Notes: generated by a model from the letters alone, not told the origin. Counted from the stretch's first letter, positions 42,050 to 58,303 are shown. The stretch: DNA of 64,000 nt from Fidelibacterota bacterium (GCA_014381925.1 JACNKR010000025.1:18506-82505), one strand, 5' to 3'. A program made the numbers and translations.

Positions 42050-42525
42050 AAAATTTCTAGCCACCTTTTATATGCATTAGTGTTTTTAGTTTGTAATAAC
42101 CTTTTTTTGATAGTTTGGCACAATTTATTTACATTTATATCATTTAGCTCATTCCTTAAACCTGATGGAGCACCATTGATACGATACGGAGAGATTCTCA
42201 GCTTTCGAATAATTTGTGAATATTCTAAATATTCATCTGTCCCCTTTTTATTTTCCATGTTTTGATTTCTAAATTTATTATTCCGAATTCGTAATTTTGC
42301 TTTTATTAAGTCCGTAACCGTATGCGATAATTGACTTGTAATATAATAAATTAAATCACAATTAGAGATTTTTTCAATATTACAATTTCTTTCAAATCCT
42401 GTATTATGAATAAGCATTGCACCGTGCTCATGAATGACATTTTCAAATTGTTCATAACTAATTTAGTCTGTTCCTCCAACTACACCTATCTTAATTCCCG
42501 TTAAATCTGTTTTTGCTTTGTTCAT
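42046..42525 (-). pseudogene. DUF2325-like Rossmann-fold protein with an in-frame TAA
   Basis: ATG at 42525 overlaps the McrC-like TGA; MNKAKTDLTGIKIGVVGGTD*ISYEQ...CDLIYYITSQLSH; TAA at 42463-42465. Confidence 0.6.
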
Positions 42526-44177
42526 TTGAGAATACCTTCTATTTCGAAAAGATTGGTTAAAAATGTGTTTAATACTTTATCAACATTGTATTCACCTTTT
42601 CCGGTATCACCATATTCTGGTCTTAATGGGAGCCAGCCTGAAGTCATTCTATAATCGCCATCAAAATGACACTGTTTTTCATAGTAATTGATTTTAGAAG
42701 TGAATTTACTCCCTTCGTATAATCCTGGGTATAATAACCAAAAATGATTTACTAAATTAATTTTAGTTCCCTCCGTAGTGACAACACCAACAGAATTATA
42801 ACTTTTTTTTATACATTTTATCATTTCAGCCACCATTTTACTTTCTGGCATATATTTAGCATCAAATATAAATATCTTTTTTATTTCTTCATTTATTTTA
42901 AAATAAATAGACAAATCTGGGGTTTTTGGCGCATCACTATCACTATTAATCAATCCGACTTTTCCATTCTCGGCACGTGGAATTTTTCTACCCATAATAA
43001 TATCAAAACTGTAGTTATGAATTTTTCCATGCATTTCAGGTTTATTTGGATTTTCTAAATATTCAATGTTAATAATATTTCTCTCTAATGAATTATAAAA
43101 TTTTATAAATAACCAGTATTCATATAATTCAGAAATTTTAGTTAAATTCCTGTCACCAATTTCTAAAACATTGGGAATTGCAAAAGAATAATCAAAATCT
43201 TTAATATTCTTTCTTATTGAGAAATAATTTTTATTATTTGATTCAATCCAAGTTGGTGGAGGGATTATTTTATTATTTTTTAGATAGTCTGGTAACTTAA
43301 AAAACTTCAAAAATAGATTGTGAATACCTTTTAAATTTTTCCTTGAAAATGCTAATTTGTCTCTTGCCTCTTTTGCATATTCTTTTTTCCCTTTTAGTTT
43401 TAAAAGCTCATCAACTTTATCAATCAATTCATCAACTTTATCAATCAAAAACGAAATGCAATGAGAAATGTTTTTCAGAGATTTTATTTCGGGTTTTATA
43501 TTGACAGATGGAACAAGTAAGGTATTTTGAATTTGAGTTTTGTAGCTATATACATTATACCCTTTTTTATAAATAGTTTTTAATATTGTAATGTTTATTT
43601 TGCTCTTTTTATTAAAGGGTTTAAAAACCATATTTGATTTAATGAAAGGTTTTCCAATGATTGATTGAATATGATATATAAACCTATCTATTAATTTTTT
43701 AAAAATAATTATTTGGTGGTCAAGTTGATTGGTCCTATTCAGTATCTGTAATAAAAAATCATGTTTTACTAATCCAATGTTTATAATATTTGGAAACAAT
43801 GTATAAATATCTTTCACCATTTGTTGGAAATGATTATTTAATATTTTAGTTGGTAAAATATAGATCTTTAAAGCAAACTTCCTTATCGTATTCTTATAAA
43901 AGACAAATTCAGTATTGCCGCTATATTCTCCATCGAAAAGTTGTCTCGTTGAATTCTCCTTCATAGGTAATGAAATCCTATTTTTTTTAGATTTATTTTC
44001 TCCTTGTCCCACCTCCCAACCGGGTGTTGATTCTTCTAAATCAAACCGAAAATAGTTTGATTGATAAAAATCGTGATCACATGAAAAACTTTGTTGATTG
44101 TTATTATCAATTTTAAATTCGATTAGCTCTTCTTTTTCTTCTCCTATTTTTTTTTTAATATATAATAAAATTTTCAT
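42522..44177 (-). CDS. McrC-like nuclease (DUF2357-type N-domain plus PD-(D/E)xK)
   Basis: LPTKI-x5-QQMVKDI, LYEYWLFIK, TPDLSI...IFDAKY, WLLYPG; directly downstream of the McrB-like gene. Confidence 0.75.
   Translation of the reverse strand: MKILLYIKKKIGEEKEELIEFKIDNNNQQSFSCDHDFYQSNYFRFDLEESTPGWEVGQGENKSKKNRISLPMKENSTRQLFDGEYSGNTEFVFYKNTIRKFALKIYILPTKILNNHFQQMVKDIYTLFPNIINIGLVKHDFLLQILNRTNQLDHQIIIFKKLIDRFIYHIQSIIGKPFIKSNMVFKPFNKKSKINITILKTIYKKGYNVYSYKTQIQNTLLVPSVNIKPEIKSLKNISHCISFLIDKVDELIDKVDELLKLKGKKEYAKEARDKLAFSRKNLKGIHNLFLKFFKLPDYLKNNKIIPPPTWIESNNKNYFSIRKNIKDFDYSFAIPNVLEIGDRNLTKISELYEYWLFIKFYNSLERNIINIEYLENPNKPEMHGKIHNYSFDIIMGRKIPRAENGKVGLINSDSDAPKTPDLSIYFKINEEIKKIFIFDAKYMPESKMVAEMIKCIKKSYNSVGVVTTEGTKINLVNHFWLLYPGLYEGSKFTSKINYYEKQCHFDGDYRMTSGWLPLRPEYGDTGKGEYNVDKVLNTFLTNLFEIEGILK
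43408..43448. repeat. 21-nt tandem duplication encoding a repeated heptad (LIDKVDE x2)
   Basis: TCATCAACTTTATCAATCAA at 43408-43427 and 43429-43448. Confidence 0.85.
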
Positions 44178-44187
44178 TAATTATTTA

Positions 44188-47100
44188 CTATCCAAAGAAA
44201 TCGAAATCTTCCATATCAAAGCCATTTTGATAAATCTGTTCAGCTTTGATAAATGAATTTCTATACAATAATTCATCATCTTCAGATCTATTTTTCATTA
44301 TACCATTTTCATCAAATGTTACCTGATTCGTTTCTTCCAGCGAACTCAATTTTTTCATAATTGTTTGCAACCTCAATTTCATCCCATCACCAAATCCTCT
44401 CAACTTTGGCAATATCCGTTGTAATATTTGAATATCTAATGCATCATTTTCATTCATCCAGTCATTTTCAGTAGCAAGTTGTACATATTTTTCAATTCCC
44501 AAAATTGTGCGTGGGCTGATAAAGAATTTTTTGCCTTTGCCTTTGTCTTTGTCTACGTCTTGAGAAAATGCTTTAACAATAGTTTTTAACTCTCCCAACC
44601 CTTCTTTTGGATTTGTTCCATCAAGAGTGGGTATTATCAATGCTTTATTATTTTTTACAGCATCATATTTCAATTCAGCACCTCTAAAATAATCACCACT
44701 ATTCCCATTCAATTCAATCAAATTAGCTCTGTCCAAAAACCGTGGGCTAAATCGCTCTACCGTTTCATCTATATTAGCCGTTCCAAAAAAGTGAGTATTC
44801 GGACGTAATTGAAGCGGATTAGGTAAAATATCTTTAAACTTAATTCCACTCAATTTATCCATATATTCCACTTTCCCAAGTTCCGAACCTGAAATTGCAG
44901 TCATAATAGTGGACATATAATATTCCGGCGTGGAAAGATTTATTTCATCTAATAATGGAGCAAAAAATAGGTTATCATTTTTATTTTTAACGGCCTCATT
45001 TGCTGCAATCAGCAAGGGTAATAAATCATTATTAGCAAATTGATAGCGATAGTTTGCAAAATTATAAAATCCAAATAATTCTGATTGGTCAAACCAATTG
45101 CGTTGCACAGATATATTACATAATCTATTTTGTTGTCCAATAGCGTGCATAAACGACTTTATTAAACTGGTTTTTCCAAATCCGGGTGGGCCAGTTAAAA
45201 TAGTCATACTTCCTGTTTGAATACAGAGCAGAAGGTTTTTTATTGTTTCAGCATCAGTTTCATAACCAATATTTTTCATTCGTTCTATAATTTCATCAAC
45301 TAATTCATCGCCTTTAAGATCTTCAGACGTATTTGAATTAAGATATTTATTGCAAACAATTCCTCTCTTTCCATCTTCGCCATACAAATATTTTTTAACT
45401 TCATCCCGATTGCCGTCGGTTGATGATTTACTTGAACCTCCGTCTCCATTCTTTCCCGGCTCACCTTTCTCACCTTTATCACCTTTAGGTCCTTGTGCTC
45501 CAGTATCGCCTTTATCACCCTGAATACCTTGATCTCCTTTGGGTCCAGTGGTTCCATCATCTCCTTTATCACCAGTATCTCCTTTTTCGCCCTTTATTGT
45601 TTCACCAAAATCTTTGTGTCCATTTAAATCTTTCCAACCTTTACTATGCCATTCTGGTTCTTCTTCATCATCTGGATTTTTCTTTGATTGTTTTTTGGTA
45701 ACTACTTTTGCCTCTTTCGATGGTGGTTTTATTTCTCCATCCTCTGGTTTCCCTTGTTTGATACCTTTTTTAGTTTTGCCATTAGGTTTATCTGCTTCAG
45801 CATAAATTGGTTCTTCAATATACTCAGCGTCAATTAAACCATTTGGGTCATATACACCCACAGTTGTTTTACTCATTCCAAAGTCAATGCCAAGGTAGAT
45901 TTCGTTGGGATCTTTTATATTTCCTTCCGATTCATCTTCAGAATTGTTGGTATTAACTTTTTGTATTGGTGGTATATCAAGGGAATTATTTTTTATCAAA
46001 TTTTTAATTTCAGTATGATTATCCATTACTTCGAAGCCTAGTTGAAATGCGATTGTATTGCCGATGGAAATACAATCAGTTATTTTAAAATCGAATTCAG
46101 GATTAGCAATGTTGTTTAGTAAATCTGAATAAATAGGAATTTCCGTACAAAAATTTTCAGATAATTGATTAAGTTTTACTTCTTTATTATTTGCATAAAT
46201 ATACACTTTAACACCATTAGTTAAATCTTCATTTGTAACATCTAATGTTGAATCTGGGATAAGATTATTCTCATTAATAAGATTTATAGTAATTCTATAA
46301 TTTCCCGCATCGTTGTTTTTATGTTTTAGTTTAAATATTTTTTCACCAATAAGCAAAAATGCATACACGCGAGTATCATAATATATACCTTGTATTTTCG
46401 CGTTTGCTTTTTCTTCTTCGGTTCTTCCAAATTTATTTTTAAATTCATTCTTTAAATATTGTGCAAGCCCTAACCCACCTAATTTTCTGTTTTTGTTATG
46501 ATTTTTTAATGTAGATGAAAGTATTTCACTATCAGAGTACCATTTTTTTAATGTGTTTTTAACTTGATCTTTCAGCCATATATTTTCGTAAAAACCACCA
46601 GTTATAAGTATTCTTGTAACTGGATTATTTTCATACTCAACATCATATTCCTCTTTGAGTTTCTTCAAGGTGTCAGACAACTCTTTATAAAATTTGTCAA
46701 ATATTTTTTTAAAGTTTTCTTCCTTTAATGGAACAGTAATTTTTTTATAAGAAAAATCTTTATAATCATCATTTTCTATTATATTTTTTTCAATTTTATC
46801 AAGTAATTTCCAATCAAATTCATCCTTTTCATCCCTGTTTTTAAAAGATCCAATTTTTCCATTATTTTTTAAATCCTCTCGGATTTTGGTATAATAATGA
46901 CTTGCACCCAATTCTATTGAGTTTACTTTTAAAGATGTTGTTTTTTGATCAGTTACTCTAATGAAAGTTGAATCAAGAGTTAATGCTCCAAAGTCAAGCA
47001 CCCAAAGTAAATCACCTTTTACTCTATCTATATTTGCATTTGGCTCATTAATAAATTGATAATAAATAGAATCAGCTTCACCTTTTATGTAATTACGAAC

Positions 47101-47646
47101 TAAATCCTCTCCAAATAACGAAAACCGATCGTTTCTCGTATTAATAGCCTTTTTAACTGCGTTCCTAATATTATCTTGAAAATTCTTATTATATTTTTTC
47201 TCTTCATCTGTTGCATTTATACCGTATTTATAATCAGGTTTTGAATAAATAATTTTTACATTTGTTTGTTTATATTGCTTATTACCTAATGCACTATTTA
47301 GAGTATCACCAATTTCTTCAAATAATTTTTCAAAATATTTTTCAGTAATAAATGGTGCAGCAAAAACATCTCCATTATCATCAATATCTACGCCTGAGTA
47401 TAGTCTAATATCTCTATTTTTATTAATTAGTTGTTTACCATCATATGTTAATTGACCTTTAAAATATCTATAAATTTGATGCGTCGAGTCTAATTGTGAT
47501 GTACTATTTAATAATGAAAACCTGTAACTATCCCTATCAATCTGATCACGAGGGGCTTTTGATAATTCACCCCTTATTATAGAATCCTTTATATTTTTTA
47601 ATTTCAACAACCCTAATTTATTTTCAAATTGGTTATTCTGATTCAT
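44188..47646 (-). CDS. Hsp70/actin-like ATPase + collagen-like linker + McrB-like AAA+ GTPase fusion (1152 aa)
   Basis: LDFGALTLDS, ITGGF, LGLAQY and later GIDFGMSKT (Hsp70-like); 17 Gly-X-Y triplets; GPPGFGKT, LLDEINLS, GTANIDET, FSPRFLDRAN (McrB-type). Confidence 0.8.
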   Translation of the reverse strand: MNQNNQFENKLGLLKLKNIKDSIIRGELSKAPRDQIDRDSYRFSLLNSTSQLDSTHQIYRYFKGQLTYDGKQLINKNRDIRLYSGVDIDDNGDVFAAPFITEKYFEKLFEEIGDTLNSALGNKQYKQTNVKIIYSKPDYKYGINATDEEKKYNKNFQDNIRNAVKKAINTRNDRFSLFGEDLVRNYIKGEADSIYYQFINEPNANIDRVKGDLLWVLDFGALTLDSTFIRVTDQKTTSLKVNSIELGASHYYTKIREDLKNNGKIGSFKNRDEKDEFDWKLLDKIEKNIIENDDYKDFSYKKITVPLKEENFKKIFDKFYKELSDTLKKLKEEYDVEYENNPVTRILITGGFYENIWLKDQVKNTLKKWYSDSEILSSTLKNHNKNRKLGGLGLAQYLKNEFKNKFGRTEEEKANAKIQGIYYDTRVYAFLLIGEKIFKLKHKNNDAGNYRITINLINENNLIPDSTLDVTNEDLTNGVKVYIYANNKEVKLNQLSENFCTEIPIYSDLLNNIANPEFDFKITDCISIGNTIAFQLGFEVMDNHTEIKNLIKNNSLDIPPIQKVNTNNSEDESEGNIKDPNEIYLGIDFGMSKTTVGVYDPNGLIDAEYIEEPIYAEADKPNGKTKKGIKQGKPEDGEIKPPSKEAKVVTKKQSKKNPDDEEEPEWHSKGWKDLNGHKDFGETIKGEKGDTGDKGDDGTTGPKGDQGIQGDKGDTGAQGPKGDKGEKGEPGKNGDGGSSKSSTDGNRDEVKKYLYGEDGKRGIVCNKYLNSNTSEDLKGDELVDEIIERMKNIGYETDAETIKNLLLCIQTGSMTILTGPPGFGKTSLIKSFMHAIGQQNRLCNISVQRNWFDQSELFGFYNFANYRYQFANNDLLPLLIAANEAVKNKNDNLFFAPLLDEINLSTPEYYMSTIMTAISGSELGKVEYMDKLSGIKFKDILPNPLQLRPNTHFFGTANIDETVERFSPRFLDRANLIELNGNSGDYFRGAELKYDAVKNNKALIIPTLDGTNPKEGLGELKTIVKAFSQDVDKDKGKGKKFFISPRTILGIEKYVQLATENDWMNENDALDIQILQRILPKLRGFGDGMKLRLQTIMKKLSSLEETNQVTFDENGIMKNRSEDDELLYRNSFIKAEQIYQNGFDMEDFDFFG
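45439..45591 (-). repeat. collagen-like (Gly-X-Y)17 coding repeat
   Basis: GEK GDT GDK GDD GTT GPK GDQ GIQ GDK GDT GAQ GPK GDK GEK GEP GKN GDG. Confidence 0.95.
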
Positions 47647-48153
47647 TTTAAATTTTGTCTTTCATAATTTCTAAGTCTTTCAATTTCTCTTTTTTGATAA
47701 CTTGGTTCTTTCTTCTCGCTTATATAAACATCAAATTTTCCGCCACCAATGTTTCTATAATAGATACGCCCATCTTTATTTCCACCTGTATTGAAATGAA
47801 AATCATAAAATCTTTAAGTAGTTTTGACATGTGTAGTATTAAGTTTCTTTATTATACCTGTATTTAATATCATCAAGTTTTTAAATATATCCTTTGTGTT
47901 TAAAATCAATTCTTGGTCAAAAATATTATCAAATGAACCCCAAATAAAATTTAGATTTGAAAATATCTCCTTAAATATTTTTTTATATTTATTATGTAGC
48001 TTTGATATGTTTTTCAAATTTTCACTTTTCATTTTTATAATTTTATCATTAAGATGTTTATTTTCACTTTGACACGTTCTTAATTTTTTAAATCGTTCTT
48101 TTTCTTGTATTATTATTTTTTGTTCTAATTAATTTTTTTTCTAATTTTGACAT
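47643..48153 (-). pseudogene. coiled-coil plus RelE/ParE-like protein; apparent 1-nt insertion and one in-frame TAA
   Basis: ATG 48153 follows the upstream stop; final TGA overlaps the McrB-like ATG; 511 nt = 170 codons + 1. VKTT*RFYDFHFNTGGNKDGRIYYR...VYISEKK...QKREIERL; TAA at 47814-47816. Confidence 0.6.
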
Positions 48154-48155
48154 TA

Positions 48156-48566
48156 TTATATCCCAAACATTTGGTCAGAACAATTTTCACATAAATCATG
48201 TGCTTCATTTGAATAGGTTACAGGCGACCTACCACACCAATCACATTTTTCGTAGCTTTCAGACTCTATCCCTTCATTTAGCCACTTTTCAGCTTCAATT
48301 TCTGGAATTGTACTATCAACAATTTTATCGAAAATATCAAAATCTTTTTTTGTAAATGTATCTTTGTATTTATTAGAAATATGACCATTATCTGCTAACC
48401 AATTATTAATGTTATTTAAAAATTCTATAGAGTTCTTATTTTCATTATTTTTGATTAATTTATTTAATACTTCTTCTAATTTTTCAGGTGAAAGATTTGC
48501 ACTTTTCAATAACATTCGTGCACTGATTTTTCTATATTCATTTTCTTGGTTACTTACTTTTTTCAT
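48156..48566 (-). CDS. hypothetical protein with a C-terminal Cys4 zinc ribbon
   Basis: CDWC-x14-CENC; ATG 48566 overlaps the upstream TGA. Confidence 0.6.
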   Translation of the reverse strand: MKKVSNQENEYRKISARMLLKSANLSPEKLEEVLNKLIKNNENKNSIEFLNNINNWLADNGHISNKYKDTFTKKDFDIFDKIVDSTIPEIEAEKWLNEGIESESYEKCDWCGRSPVTYSNEAHDLCENCSDQMFGI

Positions 48567-49081
48567 TTTATATTCCCTTTCGTTAAATGCCAACCATCAC
48601 CATTAGGGCATTTATAAATTTTAAGTTTGATTTTTTGTTCTTTTAAAATAATAGTTTTTCTTATTTGTGCACCTTTTTTAGTAAAATATAATTCTTTAGG
48701 TTTTTTATTCCCATCTGTACAAGTAGTACAAATAATACTTGGAGTATGTCTATTTTTGGGTGATAAATGCCATTTTTTACATGTATTACATTTATAGGGT
48801 GTTAACTCTGAATCATGATCTAGTTTTAAATATTGACTATGTTCTTTCGCATTATATTTTGTATTGTATTCAGATAAAAATTCACCATAATTACTTTTAC
48901 ATGTATTACTCTTTATAATTTGTGTTTTACTTGGTGACAAATGATAGTTTTCACACTTATTGCATCTATATGGTGATAATTCCAAATTATATTTATTATT
49001 AGTATAAATAGCGGCTTCATGAGCTTCATTTTCATTTTTATAAATTGATAATGGGTTTCCTCTTTTACCAATACACTGCAA
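48563..49081 (-). CDS. protein with three tandem zinc-finger-like repeats
   Basis: Three C-x~10-Y...L-x2-Y-x-C-x2-C-x3-HL(S/T) units; the third ends CPNGDGWHLT. Confidence 0.65.
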   Translation of the reverse strand: MQCIGKRGNPLSIYKNENEAHEAAIYTNNKYNLELSPYRCNKCENYHLSPSKTQIIKSNTCKSNYGEFLSEYNTKYNAKEHSQYLKLDHDSELTPYKCNTCKKWHLSPKNRHTPSIICTTCTDGNKKPKELYFTKKGAQIRKTIILKEQKIKLKIYKCPNGDGWHLTKGNIK

Positions 49082-49089
49082 TATTATTT

Positions 49090-49305
49090 TTACCCCCCAC
49101 CCACAAAATCATCATCGTCTTCATTTAAGAATTCACTGATATCATCTTGTGCTCTTATTGGATCACCTGCATTTGTATATACAATATGATTATCTTCATA
49201 TTCATTATGACTATTATTTTCAATTGCTGAGCAAGTTTGATTTAATACATGATTGTTATATTTTTCTTTTGAAGAAAAAAGTGTGTTACACTTTGTACAT
49301 TCCAT
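49090..49305 (-). CDS. small C2HC zinc-finger-like protein with an acidic tail
   Basis: CTKCNTLFSSKEKYNNHVLNQTC; EDDDDF tail; AAGGA RBS. Confidence 0.6.
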   Translation of the reverse strand: MECTKCNTLFSSKEKYNNHVLNQTCSAIENNSHNEYEDNHIVYTNAGDPIRAQDDISEFLNEDDDDFVGGG

Positions 49306-49428
49306 TTAATTATCCTTTTTATTAAATTTGTTTATTAATTTTTTATACAATAAAAAAGCAAATATGCTAAATATGATGCCAAACATAAATCCATATATAA
49401 AAATTTCATACAGGTCAAAGAATAACAA
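49306..49428 (-). CDS. 40-aa single-TM peptide (not in ORF track)
   Basis: TTG directly after the upstream TAA, AAGGA 10 nt upstream; MLFFDLYEIFIYGFMFGIIFSIFAFLLYKKLINKFNKKDN; its TAA abuts the next ATG. Confidence 0.5.
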   Translation of the reverse strand: MLFFDLYEIFIYGFMFGIIFSIFAFLLYKKLINKFNKKDN

Positions 49429-49767
49429 TTATACATTATCCTTATTTTTTATTTCCTTAATTAATAAATGTGCGGATTCTAATAATCTACCTGGTAATTG
49501 GATTACGGTAACTAAAACATTACTTGAAAATAAAAAAACATATCCATTAAATAAGCTAAATCTAGTAATTCCGCCTCCTGTGAATTTATTTCGATGTCTT
49601 AATTCATCGATATGTTTTCTAATTTTTCCTTTTACTAATGAATGATGAATCCCTTCATTCCATGCTTTTTCAGCTGTTTTTTGATGATTTTTACAAATTC
49701 GCTGCTTAATCCTTTTTTTTGCGTGTCTTGAAACTATAATCTCATCTATTGGATTTAAATATGGCAA
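49429..49767 (-). CDS. phage-type basic protein, BECR/DUF4258-like fold suspected
   Basis: IVSRHAKKRIKQR N-terminal motif and YVFLF-x3-VLVTVI C-terminal strands. Confidence 0.45.
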   Translation of the reverse strand: MPYLNPIDEIIVSRHAKKRIKQRICKNHQKTAEKAWNEGIHHSLVKGKIRKHIDELRHRNKFTGGGITRFSLFNGYVFLFSSNVLVTVIQLPGRLLESAHLLIKEIKNKDNV

Positions 49768-49774
49768 ATTATTT

Positions 49775-50583
49775 TTAACCTTTTTTCTTTAAATCAACAA
49801 TCTCGACCATTGCATTTGCTCCAAAAATAGCTTGATGTCCTTCCATAGTTGTTGAAAAAGGGAGATCTGAATATGGTTTAATTGCATCTGCAGTTGGATT
49901 CATATCAACTAATAAATGATAGGCAATTCCTGCACAAGTACCAGCTACAAACCCAGTTGTTAATTCTTTGTTTTTCAATTTTAGTTTATCCCAAAATGGG
50001 TCATGATTCTTGGGGAGATTTTTATGCACAATATTAACTAGCCCCACTAACGAAAATGCGACAGTTTCAATTATTAATGCAGGAAGAAGGGAGTGGGTGA
50101 ATATGGACCGATGCCTTCCAATCCCAACTTTTAAATCAGTATCAGGTATTCCACCATCGCCATCAAATCCACCACTACCAATTAAAAAACCAATAAATAT
50201 AACAAATAATTTTGGTGCATATTCTTTTGGGTTTGAAAATAAATTTGATATAATTATTTTTAAGAAATTGAAACTTGATTCAGATAATTTAACTATATTT
50301 CCTCTTGCTGAATTCCCCTGTTAATAATGTGTGTTTTTAATTTATTTTGCTGAATTGCTTTTATAGTATTGGATGTTTCTGAAGCAGTAAATTTTATAAA
50401 ACCCTCAATTGCCTTTAATAAACCTTTTGCTCTCCGTCCAGCTAATTTTAGAAATAAGATTCCAGATTCTTTACCCCATGATTTTAATTCTTCAGACGAT
50501 GTTTTATTAATTGCTCGTCTTATTTCTTCATATAGATTATCAATTCGAGTTTTTTTTATTTTAATAACTAATTCATTTTCCAT
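49775..50583 (-). pseudogene. YdjM-like membrane metal-dependent hydrolase, frameshifted
   Basis: Downstream frame is open from 50320 without a start (GDGGIPDTD, HRSIFTHS, YHLLVD) and overlaps the end of track ORF 50293-50583; 809 nt = 270 codons - 1. Confidence 0.65.
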
Positions 50584-50593
50584 TTATTTTCCA

Positions 50594-50929
50594 TTAAATT
50601 TCTTTTAATATAGATTTAATAATAATATATTTTTGCTCACAAAATTCATGGACACCACATTGATTAATCCATTCTTTATATTTTCGTCTTTCAATATCAT
50701 CATCCTGACGAAGTAAAATGAGTTCTCTATTTTTGAAAATAAATCCAATTTTAAGTACTTTAAGAATTTCAATCATTAAATATTTTGAACGAGTTTGCAT
50801 ATTACGATTAAAGAATTTTGATATTGTTGATTTATGTCTTTTTACAAGGTCTGCTAACTCTTTACGGCAAATTCCCTGTTCAAGCATTTTCTCCTCTATG
50901 ACAGTAATTATATCTTGGTCTTTATTCAT
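50594..50929 (-). CDS. XRE/Cro-family HTH regulator
   Basis: QGICRKELADLVKRHKSTISKFFN. Confidence 0.75.
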   Translation of the reverse strand: MNKDQDIITVIEEKMLEQGICRKELADLVKRHKSTISKFFNRNMQTRSKYLMIEILKVLKIGFIFKNRELILLRQDDDIERRKYKEWINQCGVHEFCEQKYIIIKSILKEI

Positions 50930-50966
50930 TTTATTCCTATCTATAAATTAAAGCAAATTTTGTAAA

Positions 50967-51000
50967 TTTCAAGTTGAAAAATAGTTGAAATAAGTTGTAG
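50967..51000. promoter_or_regulatory. candidate XRE operator: perfect dyad plus phased direct repeats
   Basis: TTTCAA-G-TTGAAA (50967-50979); AGTTGAAA at 50972 and 50983, AGTTGTAG at 50993; about 40 nt upstream of the XRE ATG. Confidence 0.4.
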
Positions 51001-51206
51001 CTATTTATTAGTTTAAAATAATTAATTTCCATAATTTAAATATAATAAACGATTATGTCATATTATTATAAAGTAGAAAAATAATTTTTAAATTATTGTT
51101 ATTAGGGTGATTAATTGTAGGGGATTAAAATGTATAACAATTATTTAGAGAATTTTTTAAATTATCATAGGTGATTGTTTAAAATAAATATATAGATTTT
51201 TTTTAC

Positions 51207-54126: not shown

Positions 54127-57100
54127 TTAATAAGAATAAGTAGAAATAGAATTAATTTTCATATTTTTGCTAAATTCAATTTTTATTTGACCATTGAATG
54201 GAATATTGAATGGTGAATATGCATTTATTGAGTTATTATTAATAATAAATATCCAGTTTTCAGGTAGGTTATGATTTGAAATATGAATATTTTGATCTAT
54301 TAAAATTTCAAATCGATGTATTGAATCTGCACTAAATTGGATTATGTTCGATTCATAATTCGGAGAAATATTAATTGAAACAGCATTTTCAGTAGGACAA
54401 ACTAAACCATTTTGAATATAATAAACTAAACAGCTTAAATCGGAAACATTTACATTGTCATCAAAATTCATATCACTTGCCCATATTTCATAGTCTGATG
54501 GGTTTGATATTGAGTTGTTATTAATATTTTGATCACATACATCAAATTGACTACATGCAATTGATTGAGCCATGGAAATATCTAAAATATCAATTAGTGT
54601 TGAATCACTTAATGGGTCATTAAGATTATTTTCTCCATTTAAAAATATATCTTGATAAGTTACATTCCCAAGTAATCCATAAGAAGTCATTTCAATATCA
54701 GATAATATTGATTCATTTCCATGAATATCATATGCACCAATTTGGTATTGTAATAATTCCCCAAAGTTAAATCCGCCAATTTCAGTATAATTATTATCAA
54801 TATATGAATGCGTTGATGGATTAACTACATTATAATTATTTCTGTAAATCGAGTAATGGCTAAAGTCGTTTTCAAAAACTGGATTCCAATTTAATAATAT
54901 ATTATCATTACCAAGTTCTAATGAAAGCCCTGTAGGTGTAGAGGGAGCAATATTATCTATAGAGTAACCATATTCAGGAAAATTACTAAATGCAGATGAG
55001 TCAATATAACCTCTATAATAAACTTTAAAATCATGATAGTTTGGATTATTTGGTACAGAATCTTCTAAAGTTGGTGAAATGAAAAAGTAACTTTGTTCAC
55101 CTGTTCCAGGGAATGAACCTACATGAGTCCAACTACTTTCTTGAAATTTTCGATATACTTGATATAATGAATCAACAGTACCATTATCCGAATATGATCG
55201 CTGAACTGTTAATTTTACATACCCACCTTGATCTCCTGGCATATCATCAATTCTTCTAATTACTGGCAGCTCACCAATTTGTGGATTAGTTTGATCACAT
55301 GAAATATTTGAATTTTGTGCAATTGTTGTTGTTAATTCCCCTTGTTTAGCTTCAATGAAATAACAATGGTCTTCTAAATAATCAAGCCCAACATCATTGA
55401 ATTGTGTATTCGTTGTTATAACTAATGGTGTAAAACATTCTCCAAGCCAATATCCTGAATTTGCAATACAGGTTTCTTCAGAATTATAAATTATATTATC
55501 TCGATAAATGGTATATTCAACTTCAAATGGCTCCATACAATCACCCCAAACCCCATCATTTATTTCTGAATAAAATTCACCATCACTACAAGATAAATAA
55601 CTAATTGGAACATTTGTACAATCAGGTATATCATTATTAGGGTTTTCATCACAGTAATTTTCATAATTATCCCAATCACAAATTCCATTACCACAGGAAT
55701 AACAATCTAAATTACAATTTTGCCAACTTTCATTTTCATATTCATGAGGAGCACCATCGGTATAACCACATTCTAAAATATTATCTACAAGTTCACAATA
55801 ACTTTCGTCTTGACATATTTCATCGCCACAAAATTGAGGTGGGATACAATCTCCAATAAATCCGACTCCAAGAAAATATTCAGTTAATCCTGTTCCACAA
55901 GCAGTTGGGTAACCATCATTACCTGACATAGAATCATCACCTGGTTCTTCAAATGGTTCTTGACAAATTCCATCTCCACAGGATATAATTGAAGAAAGGC
56001 CAAAACCAACTTGCCAAACGGAAGTATTAAAGCGTGTAGTTAAATTTTCATAATTTTCAGTGAAAACGACCAGGGTGTCACTTTCTGTTTGTATAGTCAA
56101 TGTATGAGTTACAAAAAGTTCTTTTCCCGCTAATGCAACTGGATCATAAGTTGCATCCATTCTAAATAATGTTGTTCCAGCTTGAAGAATTTCTTGGTTG
56201 ATAAAGTCACCTGAAAAAGATTGCAAATTCGCACTCCCATCCATTTGGGTATATGCTGAAAAATCAAAATCTTCATCATCTAAAATCCCTCCAGCAGGTT
56301 GCCCAAATTGAACACAAGTATTTCCACTACAATCAGTTGTATTTGTTGCTAAGTCATTTATATTTGGAAAATCTTGAAAAACACTTAGAGTATCATATAT
56401 ATCTAAAATATCCAAATTAAATCGAGCACTATATACATCAGAATCAGCTTGTAAATTAATATAAAAACTGACAGTTCCTTGACCATCATCTACAATTTGA
56501 TCTATTGAGAGTTTTGAATTTAATGTGGTTTCATTTCTTGAATAATTTGAATTACTAGGGTTATCACTCACCGTTTGATTTCCATCACCCCAATCGCAGT
56601 CATAAATATAGGGGTCACATAAATTAACAGGGTCCCAGCTAAGTCCAATTTGTAAATTTGTTGCCTGAGCTAATAAGTTTGTAGGTCCTTCAAAATAAGG
56701 GAAGCATGCAGAATTATTTCCTCCACAAATTCCACATTGGTCAATTCCACTTCCTGCACCTAAATAACTTAAACATTCTTGCCCCATTTCATTAAATCCT
56801 AAACCATTATCACAGCTTGAAAGTGATTCGGGGTCAGTAGGGGAACACGTATTATAACAATCCTGAGAACCATTAAATGAGTTTAATGTATTTCCTCCTG
56901 TACATACACCACAGTCATCTTTTTCGGCTTCACCACTACAAGTTCCACTACAATCAATTATATAGCCAGAAGAAGTCGGCCCTTCAGTCCAGCAAGTATC
57001 CTCACCATTACCACATTGACAAATTCCGGGGTAATATGGATCTTCAACATAATTACATTCGTTTGGTCCATTACACACTCCACAAAAATCAAATGAATTT

Positions 57101-58047
57101 GATAAACAATATGAACTATCATCTTCATCTGTACATTCTGTGACAAAGTTAGATATTGGCTGGCAAGAAGAAATTAATATTTCAGGATTACCATACCCAT
57201 CACCATCTAAATCTTGACACCAATTTTGTTCAACGCAATTTGTAGTAGAGCAAGCAATATTTGAAATTTCATTTACATTAGAATTATTTTCTGTTGCGAC
57301 TACTTCAAAACAATATGTTGTTATCGGAATAAGATTTTGAATAATTGAATTATTTGATGAAGTTTGTGCAATTAATTGAGGATTATTTTCAAAATAAATT
57401 GAATATGTAATATCTAATTCGCATTCTTGAGGGCAAATACTATAATTTTCATTAATGGTGCACACACCATCTCCACATACATCTGGAGCGATCCCAGTGC
57501 CAACTTCCCAGATTACATTTTTCCATTTATATGACAGGTGTTCAATATTATTATCAATAAAATTTGATTCAGAATAATTGATGAAAAATTGAGATTCATC
57601 GCCATGGTCAGGGTCATAATTACCTGTTAATTGGAAAAGTATTCCAAAATTTGTAGGAATATTTTGTCCTGTATTATTACCACTAATTGTAAAGTCACCA
57701 AGATTTCCTTCTTCATGTGTAATAATAAACCCAATATTATCTAAGGAATTACTTGTTAATTCAACTTCCGAAATATAAATATCTGATTCTAACGATAAAT
57801 TAAAGGATGAAATGGTTGCATCATTGTCAAGATAAAATTCCATCTCAATAGTCCCATTTCCATTATCTTCAATACTTGAAATATAAATAATATTACTAAA
57901 ATATGAGTCCGCGGGGTCCCAAATATTCCAATTTAGCTGAATACTACTATGGTCAATTGTTTCTGTTTCTAAATTTACAGGCGTGTCCTGAGCAATTAGG
58001 AATTTTGAAATTCCGATTAAAATTATAATATATTTAATAATTTTCAT
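54127..58047 (-). CDS. giant secreted Cys-rich multidomain protein (FnIII-like, cohesin-like, dockerin-like)
   Basis: Signal peptide from ATG 58047; CGDG-x-C and D-x-CG-x-C repeats, DLDGDGYG motif, DMPGDQGG...GYSIDNIAP module, SDMNFDDNVNVSD. Confidence 0.65.
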   Translation of the reverse strand: MKIIKYIIILIGISKFLIAQDTPVNLETETIDHSSIQLNWNIWDPADSYFSNIIYISSIEDNGNGTIEMEFYLDNDATISSFNLSLESDIYISEVELTSNSLDNIGFIITHEEGNLGDFTISGNNTGQNIPTNFGILFQLTGNYDPDHGDESQFFINYSESNFIDNNIEHLSYKWKNVIWEVGTGIAPDVCGDGVCTINENYSICPQECELDITYSIYFENNPQLIAQTSSNNSIIQNLIPITTYCFEVVATENNSNVNEISNIACSTTNCVEQNWCQDLDGDGYGNPEILISSCQPISNFVTECTDEDDSSYCLSNSFDFCGVCNGPNECNYVEDPYYPGICQCGNGEDTCWTEGPTSSGYIIDCSGTCSGEAEKDDCGVCTGGNTLNSFNGSQDCYNTCSPTDPESLSSCDNGLGFNEMGQECLSYLGAGSGIDQCGICGGNNSACFPYFEGPTNLLAQATNLQIGLSWDPVNLCDPYIYDCDWGDGNQTVSDNPSNSNYSRNETTLNSKLSIDQIVDDGQGTVSFYINLQADSDVYSARFNLDILDIYDTLSVFQDFPNINDLATNTTDCSGNTCVQFGQPAGGILDDEDFDFSAYTQMDGSANLQSFSGDFINQEILQAGTTLFRMDATYDPVALAGKELFVTHTLTIQTESDTLVVFTENYENLTTRFNTSVWQVGFGLSSIISCGDGICQEPFEEPGDDSMSGNDGYPTACGTGLTEYFLGVGFIGDCIPPQFCGDEICQDESYCELVDNILECGYTDGAPHEYENESWQNCNLDCYSCGNGICDWDNYENYCDENPNNDIPDCTNVPISYLSCSDGEFYSEINDGVWGDCMEPFEVEYTIYRDNIIYNSEETCIANSGYWLGECFTPLVITTNTQFNDVGLDYLEDHCYFIEAKQGELTTTIAQNSNISCDQTNPQIGELPVIRRIDDMPGDQGGYVKLTVQRSYSDNGTVDSLYQVYRKFQESSWTHVGSFPGTGEQSYFFISPTLEDSVPNNPNYHDFKVYYRGYIDSSAFSNFPEYGYSIDNIAPSTPTGLSLELGNDNILLNWNPVFENDFSHYSIYRNNYNVVNPSTHSYIDNNYTEIGGFNFGELLQYQIGAYDIHGNESILSDIEMTSYGLLGNVTYQDIFLNGENNLNDPLSDSTLIDILDISMAQSIACSQFDVCDQNINNNSISNPSDYEIWASDMNFDDNVNVSDLSCLVYYIQNGLVCPTENAVSINISPNYESNIIQFSADSIHRFEILIDQNIHISNHNLPENWIFIINNNSINAYSPFNIPFNGQIKIEFSKNMKINSISTYSY

Positions 58048-58303
58048 TATATTAATTATCCAATTTGTTAAACAAAGTATTCGTGTACCTATCAAAAGAG
58101 GCAACTTACCAAGATAAATAATTTAAAAAGAAATGAATCAAAAAAATTGAATTAATTAAGTATTTAAAACATTATTATTTATTTGTTGGTTTCATAACAA
58201 TTTGTTTTTTTTGAAGAAACATTTTATTATAATTTTATCTTATTGAATATTATTAATGGTAGATAATATGTTTAAATTTTTTATAAATAAATAAATGTAA
58301 GTT

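Follow-up and report, generated by a model that had tools for sequence, protein, structure and literature searches.

A 64,000-nucleotide stretch of DNA from a Fidelibacterota bacterium (GCA_014381925.1, JACNKR010000025.1:18506-82505; hereafter the window, with positions counted from its first letter) carries on its minus strand an open reading frame (ORF) of 1152 amino acids (aa), whose product joins an Hsp70-like N-terminal module to an McrB-type GTPase. The phosphate-1 hairpin that normally opens the nucleotide-binding domain (NBD) of an Hsp70 has no canonical counterpart at the N-terminus of this protein, and a hairpin of that type is instead found far downstream, after a beta-rich region. 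The question that this locus raises is whether the displaced element completes the NBD and its ATP site, by circular permutation or by complementation. From the sequence evidence described below we give this reading a probability of roughly 0.45.

An Hsp70-like module at the N-terminus

A sequence-only reading of this DNA had described an Hsp70-like domain at window positions 45847..47646, a span that is exactly aa 1-600 of the ORF; the 550 further residues, which hold a collagen-like repeat and the McrB GTPase, were absent from it. The Hsp70 motifs that it listed were all located in the residue map of the ORF (SKPDY 135-139, GEADS 189-193, LDFGALTLD 217-225, ELGA 245-248, ITGG 348-351 and GLAQ 393-396), in an order that is colinear with DnaK. 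All of them are invariant in the only relative that was found, a complete 1074-aa protein (P0045, locus L013) that was reached through the cluster of the GTPase part and is also represented on a gapped contig, L003. The N-terminal 580 residues of this relative are 32-39% identical, and across the two alleles D218, T223 and D225 of phosphate-2, E190 or E201, K63 and G350-G351 are retained. These phosphate-2, adenosine, Glu and Lys positions fit a working ATP site that is in need of a phosphate-1 loop.

The identical full protein is present on 8 metagenome contigs. The start codon is backed by the relative, in which just 4-10 residues stand ahead of the conserved 'LGLLK', and in the relative's locus the upstream gene stops 15 nucleotides (nt) before the start of the McrB-like gene; given this short leader and the closeness of the upstream gene, no upstream exon is missing. 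McrB-S of E. coli is the product of an internal start, and a comparable start at M591 was considered here and rejected, as we read no Shine-Dalgarno sequence ahead of it.

The body of the module (aa 100-408) is very probably an Hsp70-like NBD, and this part of the sequence-only reading was borne out at moderate strength. AlphaFold2 models were generated with one sequence and with two, P0045 being supplied as the second row. When the two-sequence model was searched with Foldseek against 350,000 chains, 50 of the 50 listed matches were Hsp70-family NBDs (BiP, DnaK, Ssz1, Hsp110, Hsc70) or MreB3, the latter in two rows, with a best E of 5.5e-4 and listed probabilities of 0.69-1.00; the best matches of the module were the NBDs of BiP, DnaK and Ssz1. 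The single-sequence model of the same residues, used as a control, retrieved unrelated chains only (E 0.2 or worse), indicating that the Hsp70 signal comes from predicted local structure and not from composition. In hhalign, the two-allele pair aligned with four E. coli Hsp70s such that aa 150-368 fell on DnaK 121-359 (P ~1e-3), an alignment that brings both the phosphate-2 and the adenosine motif into register. Three profile matches were sub-threshold: Pfam MreB-like_C begins at aa 216, at the phosphate-2 motif, NCBIfam MamK covers aa 321-408, and BcrAD_BadFG is a further one. All of these faint Pfam and NCBIfam matches are ASKHA and in register.

An alternative is that the N-terminal 600 residues do not adopt an ASKHA/Hsp70 fold at all, the motif order and 'GIDFG' being a coincidence in a Lys/Asn-rich orphan. 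No Pfam, NCBIfam or PDB sequence match to the N-terminal ~600 aa reaches significance, both AlphaFold models have a pLDDT of 31 and the hhalign probability for the Hsp70 alignments is only 19-39%, all of which such an orphan would suit. Pfam HSP70 (PF00012) gave no match for the native order, for two de-permuted constructs or for the relative, and the two-allele profile found no ASKHA match among PDB sequences. The Hsp70 signature [IV]-D-L-G-T-[ST]-x-[SC] is also without a match, since the N-terminus has LGLLKL and the late motif deviates as IDFGMSKT. We nevertheless consider coincidence improbable: the Foldseek search of 350,000 chains retrieved one superfamily and its negative control was clean, six motifs follow the Hsp70 order and are unchanged across two distant alleles, the independent faint matches fall in one superfamily and one register, and the same fusion has been published (Bell et al., eLife 2024, PMC11090510).

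The beta-rich region that follows (aa 420-575) had been labelled SBD-like, and this label was not confirmed. Comparison with Hsp70 in hhalign gave no similarity to the substrate-binding domain (SBD; P = 0.5), and neither a helical lid nor a recognisable SBD sequence was seen in the module. Identity between the two alleles is 7-31% in this region, and the low-confidence model places some strands here. The sole hint of an SBD is the length of the Foldseek alignments to NBD+SBD constructs, which span 397-457 columns.

A phosphate-1-like hairpin after the beta-rich region

The absence of a canonical phosphate-1 from the N-terminus was confirmed. No match to the canonical pattern (h-h-G-h-D-h-G-T/S-T/S) occurs in aa 1-130 of this protein or of P0045, and the sole D-x-G within these residues, D90-N-G92, is not kept in the relative. 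The late segment carries a D-F-G-M-S-K-T-T loop, D588 included, ~580 residues later than in Hsp70. As the sequence-only reading had proposed, this phosphate-1-like motif, YLGIDFGMSKTTVGVYD, resembles the genuine element: in hhalign the late segment lands on DnaK residues 5-21, the true phosphate-1 hairpin (P = 0.005). The element missing at one end of the module is found at the other end, where it matches the family consensus.

Such a motif is rare by chance. When the protein was shuffled 20,000 times with its composition preserved, a 15-residue phosphate-1 pattern never occurred, and its 7-residue core did so in 0.09% of shuffles. The longer pattern also matches DnaK, and both were drawn up after the motif had been seen. 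Translation of the whole window in six frames (128,000 aa) contains each pattern once. In the two-sequence AlphaFold model, at low confidence, strands at 582-589, 594-600 and 603-610 form a three-strand meander, the predicted equivalent of beta1-beta2-beta3. The residues leading into it (aa 558-583) form a 25-residue tether that is of low complexity and flexible.

The hairpin lies within an island of exceptional identity to the relative. Residues 581-638 (NEIYLGIDFGMSKTTVGVYDPNGLIDAEYIEEPIYAEADKPNGKTKKGIKQGKPEDGE) are 100% identical at the protein level and 171/174 nt are identical (98.3%, against L013 2066-2239), with sharp edges and both flanks unalignable. The three nucleotide differences are all synonymous (proportion of synonymous differences, pS, 0.085; of nonsynonymous differences, pN, 0; Fisher p = 0.0076). 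This combination of pN and pS demonstrates that the protein sequence of the island is under purifying selection, and it is therefore not a decaying relic.

Does the hairpin complete the ATP site?

De-permuted constructs were compared with the Hsp70 NBD by semi-global hhalign. Placing the late segment ahead of aa 9-408 gave a score of 26.4 (P 5e-5). The score of the native order was 1.0, and none of 20 controls with a shuffled late segment exceeded 5.4. An end-to-end alignment with the Hsp70 NBD was reached by the de-permuted construct alone. When the hairpin was joined to the aa 100-420 core, BcrAD_BadFG was matched from profile position 1 (E 0.012), and the controls gave no such match. The proposal of a circular permutation is partly supported, in its Hsp70-like body, its N-terminus without a canonical phosphate-1 and its late hairpin; its central step, completion of the ATP site, is held only at the tentative level given at the outset.

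In the model that we favour, the phosphate-1 strand-turn-strand, comprising beta1-beta3 with the catalytic Asp and the phosphate loop, would sit at aa 582-610, past the beta-rich domain, and would pack on beta4/beta5 of subdomain IA to complete the ATP site. Docking would take place in cis through the aa 558-583 tether, which at 25 residues is long enough for this. Docking in trans within an McrB hexamer is less likely, being possible but unsupported, and the dependence of ATP binding on assembly, which the sequence-only reading had raised, is purely speculative. Circular permutation classically arises when a tandem duplicate is truncated at both of its ends, and this is the most likely origin of the arrangement from an Hsp70-like module. 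Functionally, the Hsp70-like NBD and the beta-rich domain take the place of the usual DNA-reader domain of McrB and may sense a target (RNA, or a protein or peptide of a phage), after which the AAA+ GTPase ring and an McrC-like PD-(D/E)xK nuclease would cut. The PD..DxK motif of the partner is intact, which makes DNA cleavage plausible. We regard as rather unlikely the fuller scheme of a split or permuted Hsp70-type ATPase in which divergent sensor bodies (32% identical) are swapped before a constant, motor-proximal hairpin at a recombination joint, with the ATP site formed on docking, in cis or between protomers.

Several observations weigh against completion of the ATP site by the hairpin. 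P values of 1e-3 to 5e-5 make for weak sequence statistics throughout, and constructs as well as patterns were drawn up post hoc. When the body of the relative was used, the BcrAD_BadFG match did not recur, and the gain in the semi-global alignment mainly reflects a good late phosphate-1 and not the absence of beta1-beta3 from aa 1-99. To the low pLDDT and hhalign probabilities of the body must be added Foldseek TM-scores of 0.2-0.3 for a low-confidence model. Moreover, only two alleles are known among ~15 billion proteins. With aa 1-680 and aa 1-620 as queries, a word-index search of 5.8 billion clustered proteins and an exhaustive phmmer search of 1.84 billion representative proteins returned only the protein itself or nothing, and back-translated peptides and degenerate DNA patterns of both motifs detected no related locus in genome, metagenome and viral collections. 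A pattern match in a Hyphomicrobiales metagenome-assembled genome was out of frame and hence due to chance.

The N-terminal 100 residues add to these points. The sequence 'LGLLKL-x4-6-SIIxGxL' (aa 11-28, here with SIIRGEL) is conserved at the position of Hsp70 strands beta1-beta2, and 'LGLLKL-turn-SIIRGEL' shares the position, the spacing and length, and the glycine of the beta1-beta2 hairpin. The best-conserved stretch of aa 1-100 is its first 30-codon window (52% vs 12-32% later). A normal topology is the main rival reading, which we hold to be somewhat less likely than completion by the hairpin: the NBD would be complete in aa 1-410, aa 11-28 would be a catalytically dead beta1-beta2 hairpin, and the late hairpin would be the remnant of a second, truncated copy. 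The distance from aa 11 to SKPDY is ~120 aa, close to the ~135 aa of DnaK. Degenerate Walker-A-like motifs are published for this class (PMC11090510), a dead hairpin being reported for Hsp70-like units of NxD McrB and CoCoNuT systems alike, and 'LGLLKL...' could be that motif, in which case the NBD is complete without the hairpin. A module of this kind would bind nucleotide weakly or not at all and would serve as a scaffold or as a sensor of RNA or peptide. The hairpin could then act as a tethered pseudo-substrate, add a strand to the beta-rich domain, dock McrC or the GTPase ring, or be a recombination joint.

What a normal topology leaves unexplained is the selected, intact D-x-G-x-S-x-T-T loop between diverged flanks, together with the invariant phosphate-2, adenosine, Glu and Lys positions. 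In our reading G26 and K30, four residues apart, fit the subdomain IB pattern 'h-h-G-x-x-A-K' better than a beta2 core. The invariant 'SII.G.L.K' and 'YRYFK' likewise appear to us to fit the Hsp70 IB motifs 'RLIGDAAK' and 'FDAKRLIG', and under this assignment the protein would start just past beta3. The two-sequence AlphaFold model has no strands in aa 1-39, at low confidence, and the N-terminal 130 aa alone gave no signal either way against the Hsp70 N-terminus in hhalign (P = 0.76). Residues 1-99 are either a degenerate beta1-beta2 hairpin or the equivalent of Hsp70 subdomain IB.

The nucleotide conservation of the hairpin island must also be set against the reading that we favour. The McrB core has a pS of 0.495, ~six-fold above that of the island, and from its low synonymous divergence the island was exchanged or homogenised far more recently than the rest of the gene. 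Because of this recent exchange the two alleles are not independent witnesses of the hairpin, and its conservation is weaker evidence than the identity alone implies. More patches of high synonymous identity occur in the GTPase part, indicating mosaic recombination, and contig L003 breaks inside the island with a 10-N assembly gap, as expected for a sequence common to co-occurring variants. These data suggest that the 174-nt island is a recombination joint for module shuffling.

Taken as the whole explanation, such a joint would act at the level of DNA and population, the island being a site of homologous recombination that reassorts N-terminal sensors with linker-motor modules, comparable to CdiA's VENN region or to the spacers conserved in HsdS, and the Hsp70 likeness would be historical. 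The 174 nt with 3 differences, the sharp unalignable borders, the six-fold lower synonymous divergence and the position of the gene in a strain-variable defence hotspot are all in keeping with it. However, the synonymous nature of every difference (p 0.008) argues for constraint at the protein level. Neither a second copy nor a silent cassette of the island was found in the 64-kb window, and no signal for an RNA structure, promoter or terminator that would explain the nucleotide conservation was detected. With two alleles known, reassortment itself has not been observed, and we consider it improbable that a joint accounts for the island by itself. It is also compatible with, and not exclusive of, a hairpin that completes the ATP site.

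The GTPase, the collagen-like linker and the McrC-like partner

The C-terminal part of the protein carries a Walker A motif, GPPGFGKT (aa 819-826, window 45169-45192), and the signature G-T-A-N958-I-D960-E (window 44767-44775), which we assign to the 'NxD' variant from motif position and not from structural alignment. Homologue searches gave 42 matches to the GTPase with E values down to 5e-22, several of them named 'McrB family protein' in their source, and GT.N.D[ED] is present in 9 of the 42 listed, including P0002, P0004, P0013, P0017 and P0033. PADLOC PDC-M26A also matched (E 3e-21), and Pfam AAA_5 covers aa 816-973 sub-threshold (19.9 bits against a cut-off of 22). In tblastn, 324 plasmid records match the GTPase. 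The best plasmid relative of the GTPase, an 840-aa Klebsiella protein, has an N-terminus that is coiled-coil and not Hsp70-like.

Between the hairpin island and the GTPase lie 17 uninterrupted G-X-Y triplets (aa 686-736), which the Pfam model Collagen recognises (32.9 bits, above its cut-off of 27.2; E 5.6e-8) and which are matched by collagen chains in the PDB. The repeat is absent from P0045, which has a K/E-rich linker in its place. A potentially trimerising collagen-like linker on a hexameric motor would be unusual.

The 551-aa gene downstream appears from its motifs to encode an McrC-like partner with a PD-(D/E)xK nuclease. Pfam PDDEXK_7 matched below its cut-off (E 0.0011), with the PD...DAK motif intact, and hhalign against the nuclease helix of EcoK McrC was weak (P 0.07); no Pfam match to DUF2357 was found in this protein. 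A 68% identical orthologue follows the relative's gene, and database searches found no other homologues. Together the two genes very probably form a defence system of McrBC type (Type IV restriction-like) that belongs to the 'NxD' clade of GTPases.

A strain-variable defence locus

In blastn, a contig from a related strain (L014, 93% nucleotide identity) joins window position 39166, at the flagellin stop codon, directly to 51203, and the same empty site is found in L015-L017. The intervening 39167-51202 is therefore a strain-specific island of 12,036 bp, which lies between the flagellin stop codon and a gene pair encoding an 85-aa protein and ManC. Neither a clear target-site duplication nor an integrase was seen at the island, and there are no convincing att-like repeats at its ends. 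At the same site, three contigs of other strains carry a different NxD-McrBC set (L018 11381-21377; L019 and L020 13171-21560). It comprises a 315-aa transmembrane/coiled-coil protein, a 612-aa coiled-coil McrB with GTINEDD (NxD), a 473-aa DUF2357 protein, a superfamily 1 (SF1) helicase, a PLD nuclease, a 751-aa protein and a 1113-aa STAND/TPR protein, and looks CoCoNuT-like. The locus is a strain-variable hotspot for defence islands. The coordinates of the gene, its parts and its surroundings are collected in Table 1.

Table 1 Features of the McrB-type gene, its partner and the surrounding island, in window coordinates.
Feature	Position	Strand	Content or evidence
Whole ORF, 1152 aa	44188..47646	minus	Hsp70-like N-module, displaced hairpin, linker, collagen-like repeat, McrB-type GTPase
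N-terminal segment, aa 1-99	47350..47646	minus	conserved 'LGLLK...SII.G.L.K' (aa 11-30), 'YRYFK' (59-63)
Hsp70/ASKHA-like NBD body, aa 100-408 (moderate support)	46423..47349	minus	alpha1, beta4 (SKPDY), GEADS/NEP, LDFGALTLD, ELGA, ITGG, GLGLAQ (391-396)
Beta-rich region, aa 420-575	45922..46389	minus	poorly conserved; position is that of the Hsp70 substrate-binding domain
Conserved island, aa 581-638, NEIYLGIDFGMSKTTVGVYDPNGLIDAEYIEEPIYAEADKPNGKTKKGIKQGKPEDGE	45733..45906	minus	phosphate-1-like hairpin (aa 584-600) and third strand
Late phosphate-1-like motif YLGIDFGMSKTTVGVYD, aa 584-600	45847-45897	minus	residue map
K/E/P-rich low-complexity linker, aa 639-683	45598..45732	minus	sequence; not alignable with relative
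Collagen-type repeat, aa 684-738, 17 G-X-Y triplets	45433..45597	minus	Pfam Collagen
McrB-family AAA+ GTPase domain, aa 780-1152	44188..45309	minus	McrB-family matches, Walker A, NxD signature
McrC-like partner gene, 551 aa (putative)	42522..44177	minus	motif ..TPDLSI..IFDAKYM..; starts 10 nt downstream of the McrB gene
Strain-specific island, 12,036 bp	39167..51202		McrB/McrC system, split helicase-exonuclease and ~10 small genes

Several other genes share the island. A UvrD/GajB/RTasHel-like SF1 helicase (window 39548-42064, minus strand) is split into ORFs of 415 aa and 420 aa that lie 6 nt apart and cover 9-361 and 385-669 of the PADLOC RTasHel profile, with a DEDDh exonuclease domain inserted in the second. 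The split is identical on contigs L001 and L002 and is thus not a sequencing error of one assembly. Between this helicase and the McrC-like gene is a 123-aa orphan (42046-42417, minus strand). Upstream of the McrB-type gene, three small genes (48156-49305, minus strand) encode Cys-pair, zinc-ribbon-like proteins ('..CDWCGRSPV..CENC..' and a repeated 'Y.CN.C..WHLS'), the first of which is conserved upstream of the relative's gene (L013 74-355). The edge of the island carries a gene for a 111-aa helix-turn-helix-like protein (50594-50929, minus strand; PADLOC PDC-M64C, 4e-5). Positions 54127-58104 (minus strand), just outside the island, encode a 1325-aa protein that shows faint fn3/DUF4998 matches and is adjacent to ManC and a Big_5 protein; its neighbours are in the protein collection, but the ORF as listed, which starts with TTG, is missing from it. 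The host DNA is 27% GC and encodes a flagellin; Rfam detected no RNA genes.

Relation to known systems

The fusion of an Hsp70-like module (NBD/SBD) to an NxD McrB is a published class, which forms the deepest NxD branch (Bell et al., eLife 2024, PMC11090510). In the Hsp70-like units of this class the Walker B-like motif is as a rule kept and the Walker A-like motif is found in degenerate form, the degenerate N-terminal motifs being explained as a loss of ATPase activity, and the authors argue for RNA as the target of the Hsp70-like modules (PMC11090510). Related units are CnuD/CnuCD of Type III CoCoNuTs (PMC11090510). The protein described here resembles these fusions in its N-terminal Hsp70-like module, its N-x-D(E) McrB AAA+ GTPase, an adjacent, putative McrC-type partner and its setting in a defence island, as well as in a conserved phosphate-2 ('Walker-B-like') and a non-canonical N-terminal phosphate-1; we match it to the deepest NxD branch by architecture and motif and not by tree placement. 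It differs from them in having a canonical phosphate-1 hairpin after the beta-rich domain, a collagen-like linker, an intact PD..DxK in the partner and one sequence relative only. The architecture class is therefore already known, but a displaced phosphate-1 is not described in that paper, in which 'permut' occurs 0 times (PMC11090510).

With EcoKMcrBC the system shares a Walker A AAA+ GTPase, a downstream partner that is a putative nuclease here and a variable N-terminal module for target recognition. In E. coli McrB, by contrast, the signature is NTAD (NxxD) and the N-domain is small and binds DNA; the two proteins can be aligned in the Walker A region only, at 33% over 36 aa (E 0.001). The phosphate-2, 'connect' and adenosine motifs agree in order and identity with those of Hsp70s (DnaK, BiP, HscA/HscC, YegD) and other ASKHA proteins (MreB, BcrAD/BadFG). 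Unlike in Hsp70 chaperones, phosphate-1 is not N-terminal here and the module is fused to a restriction motor.

The CoCoNuT-like set of L018-L020 shares the insertion site between the flagellin and ManC genes and an associated SF1 helicase. Its McrB GTPase is likewise NxD and 29% identical over 178 aa, and leading genes of 111 aa and 112 aa recur, by size and position only. In that set, by contrast, the N-terminus is coiled-coil with a transmembrane segment, the partner is DUF2357-positive, a PLD nuclease and a STAND/TPR protein are present, and the McrB has no late hairpin. What sets the system described here apart is a phosphate-1 hairpin that is displaced and under selection, together with its collagen-like linker and its membership of a sequence family of two known alleles.

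A literature search found no Hsp70/actin-fold ATPase that is circularly permuted in nature, and this protein would to our knowledge be the first, provided that the hairpin completes the ATP site. It would then be a case of a defence system that makes nucleotide binding conditional on domain docking or oligomerisation, and an ATP site formed by docking would couple target sensing to nuclease activation. Completion of the site by the hairpin would also open the uncharacterised Hsp70-McrB and CoCoNuT-type systems to experiment, and the families of Bell et al. 2024 would merit re-inspection for displaced hairpins. Without such completion, the protein would represent a new and very rare sequence family within the published Type IV restriction-like class.

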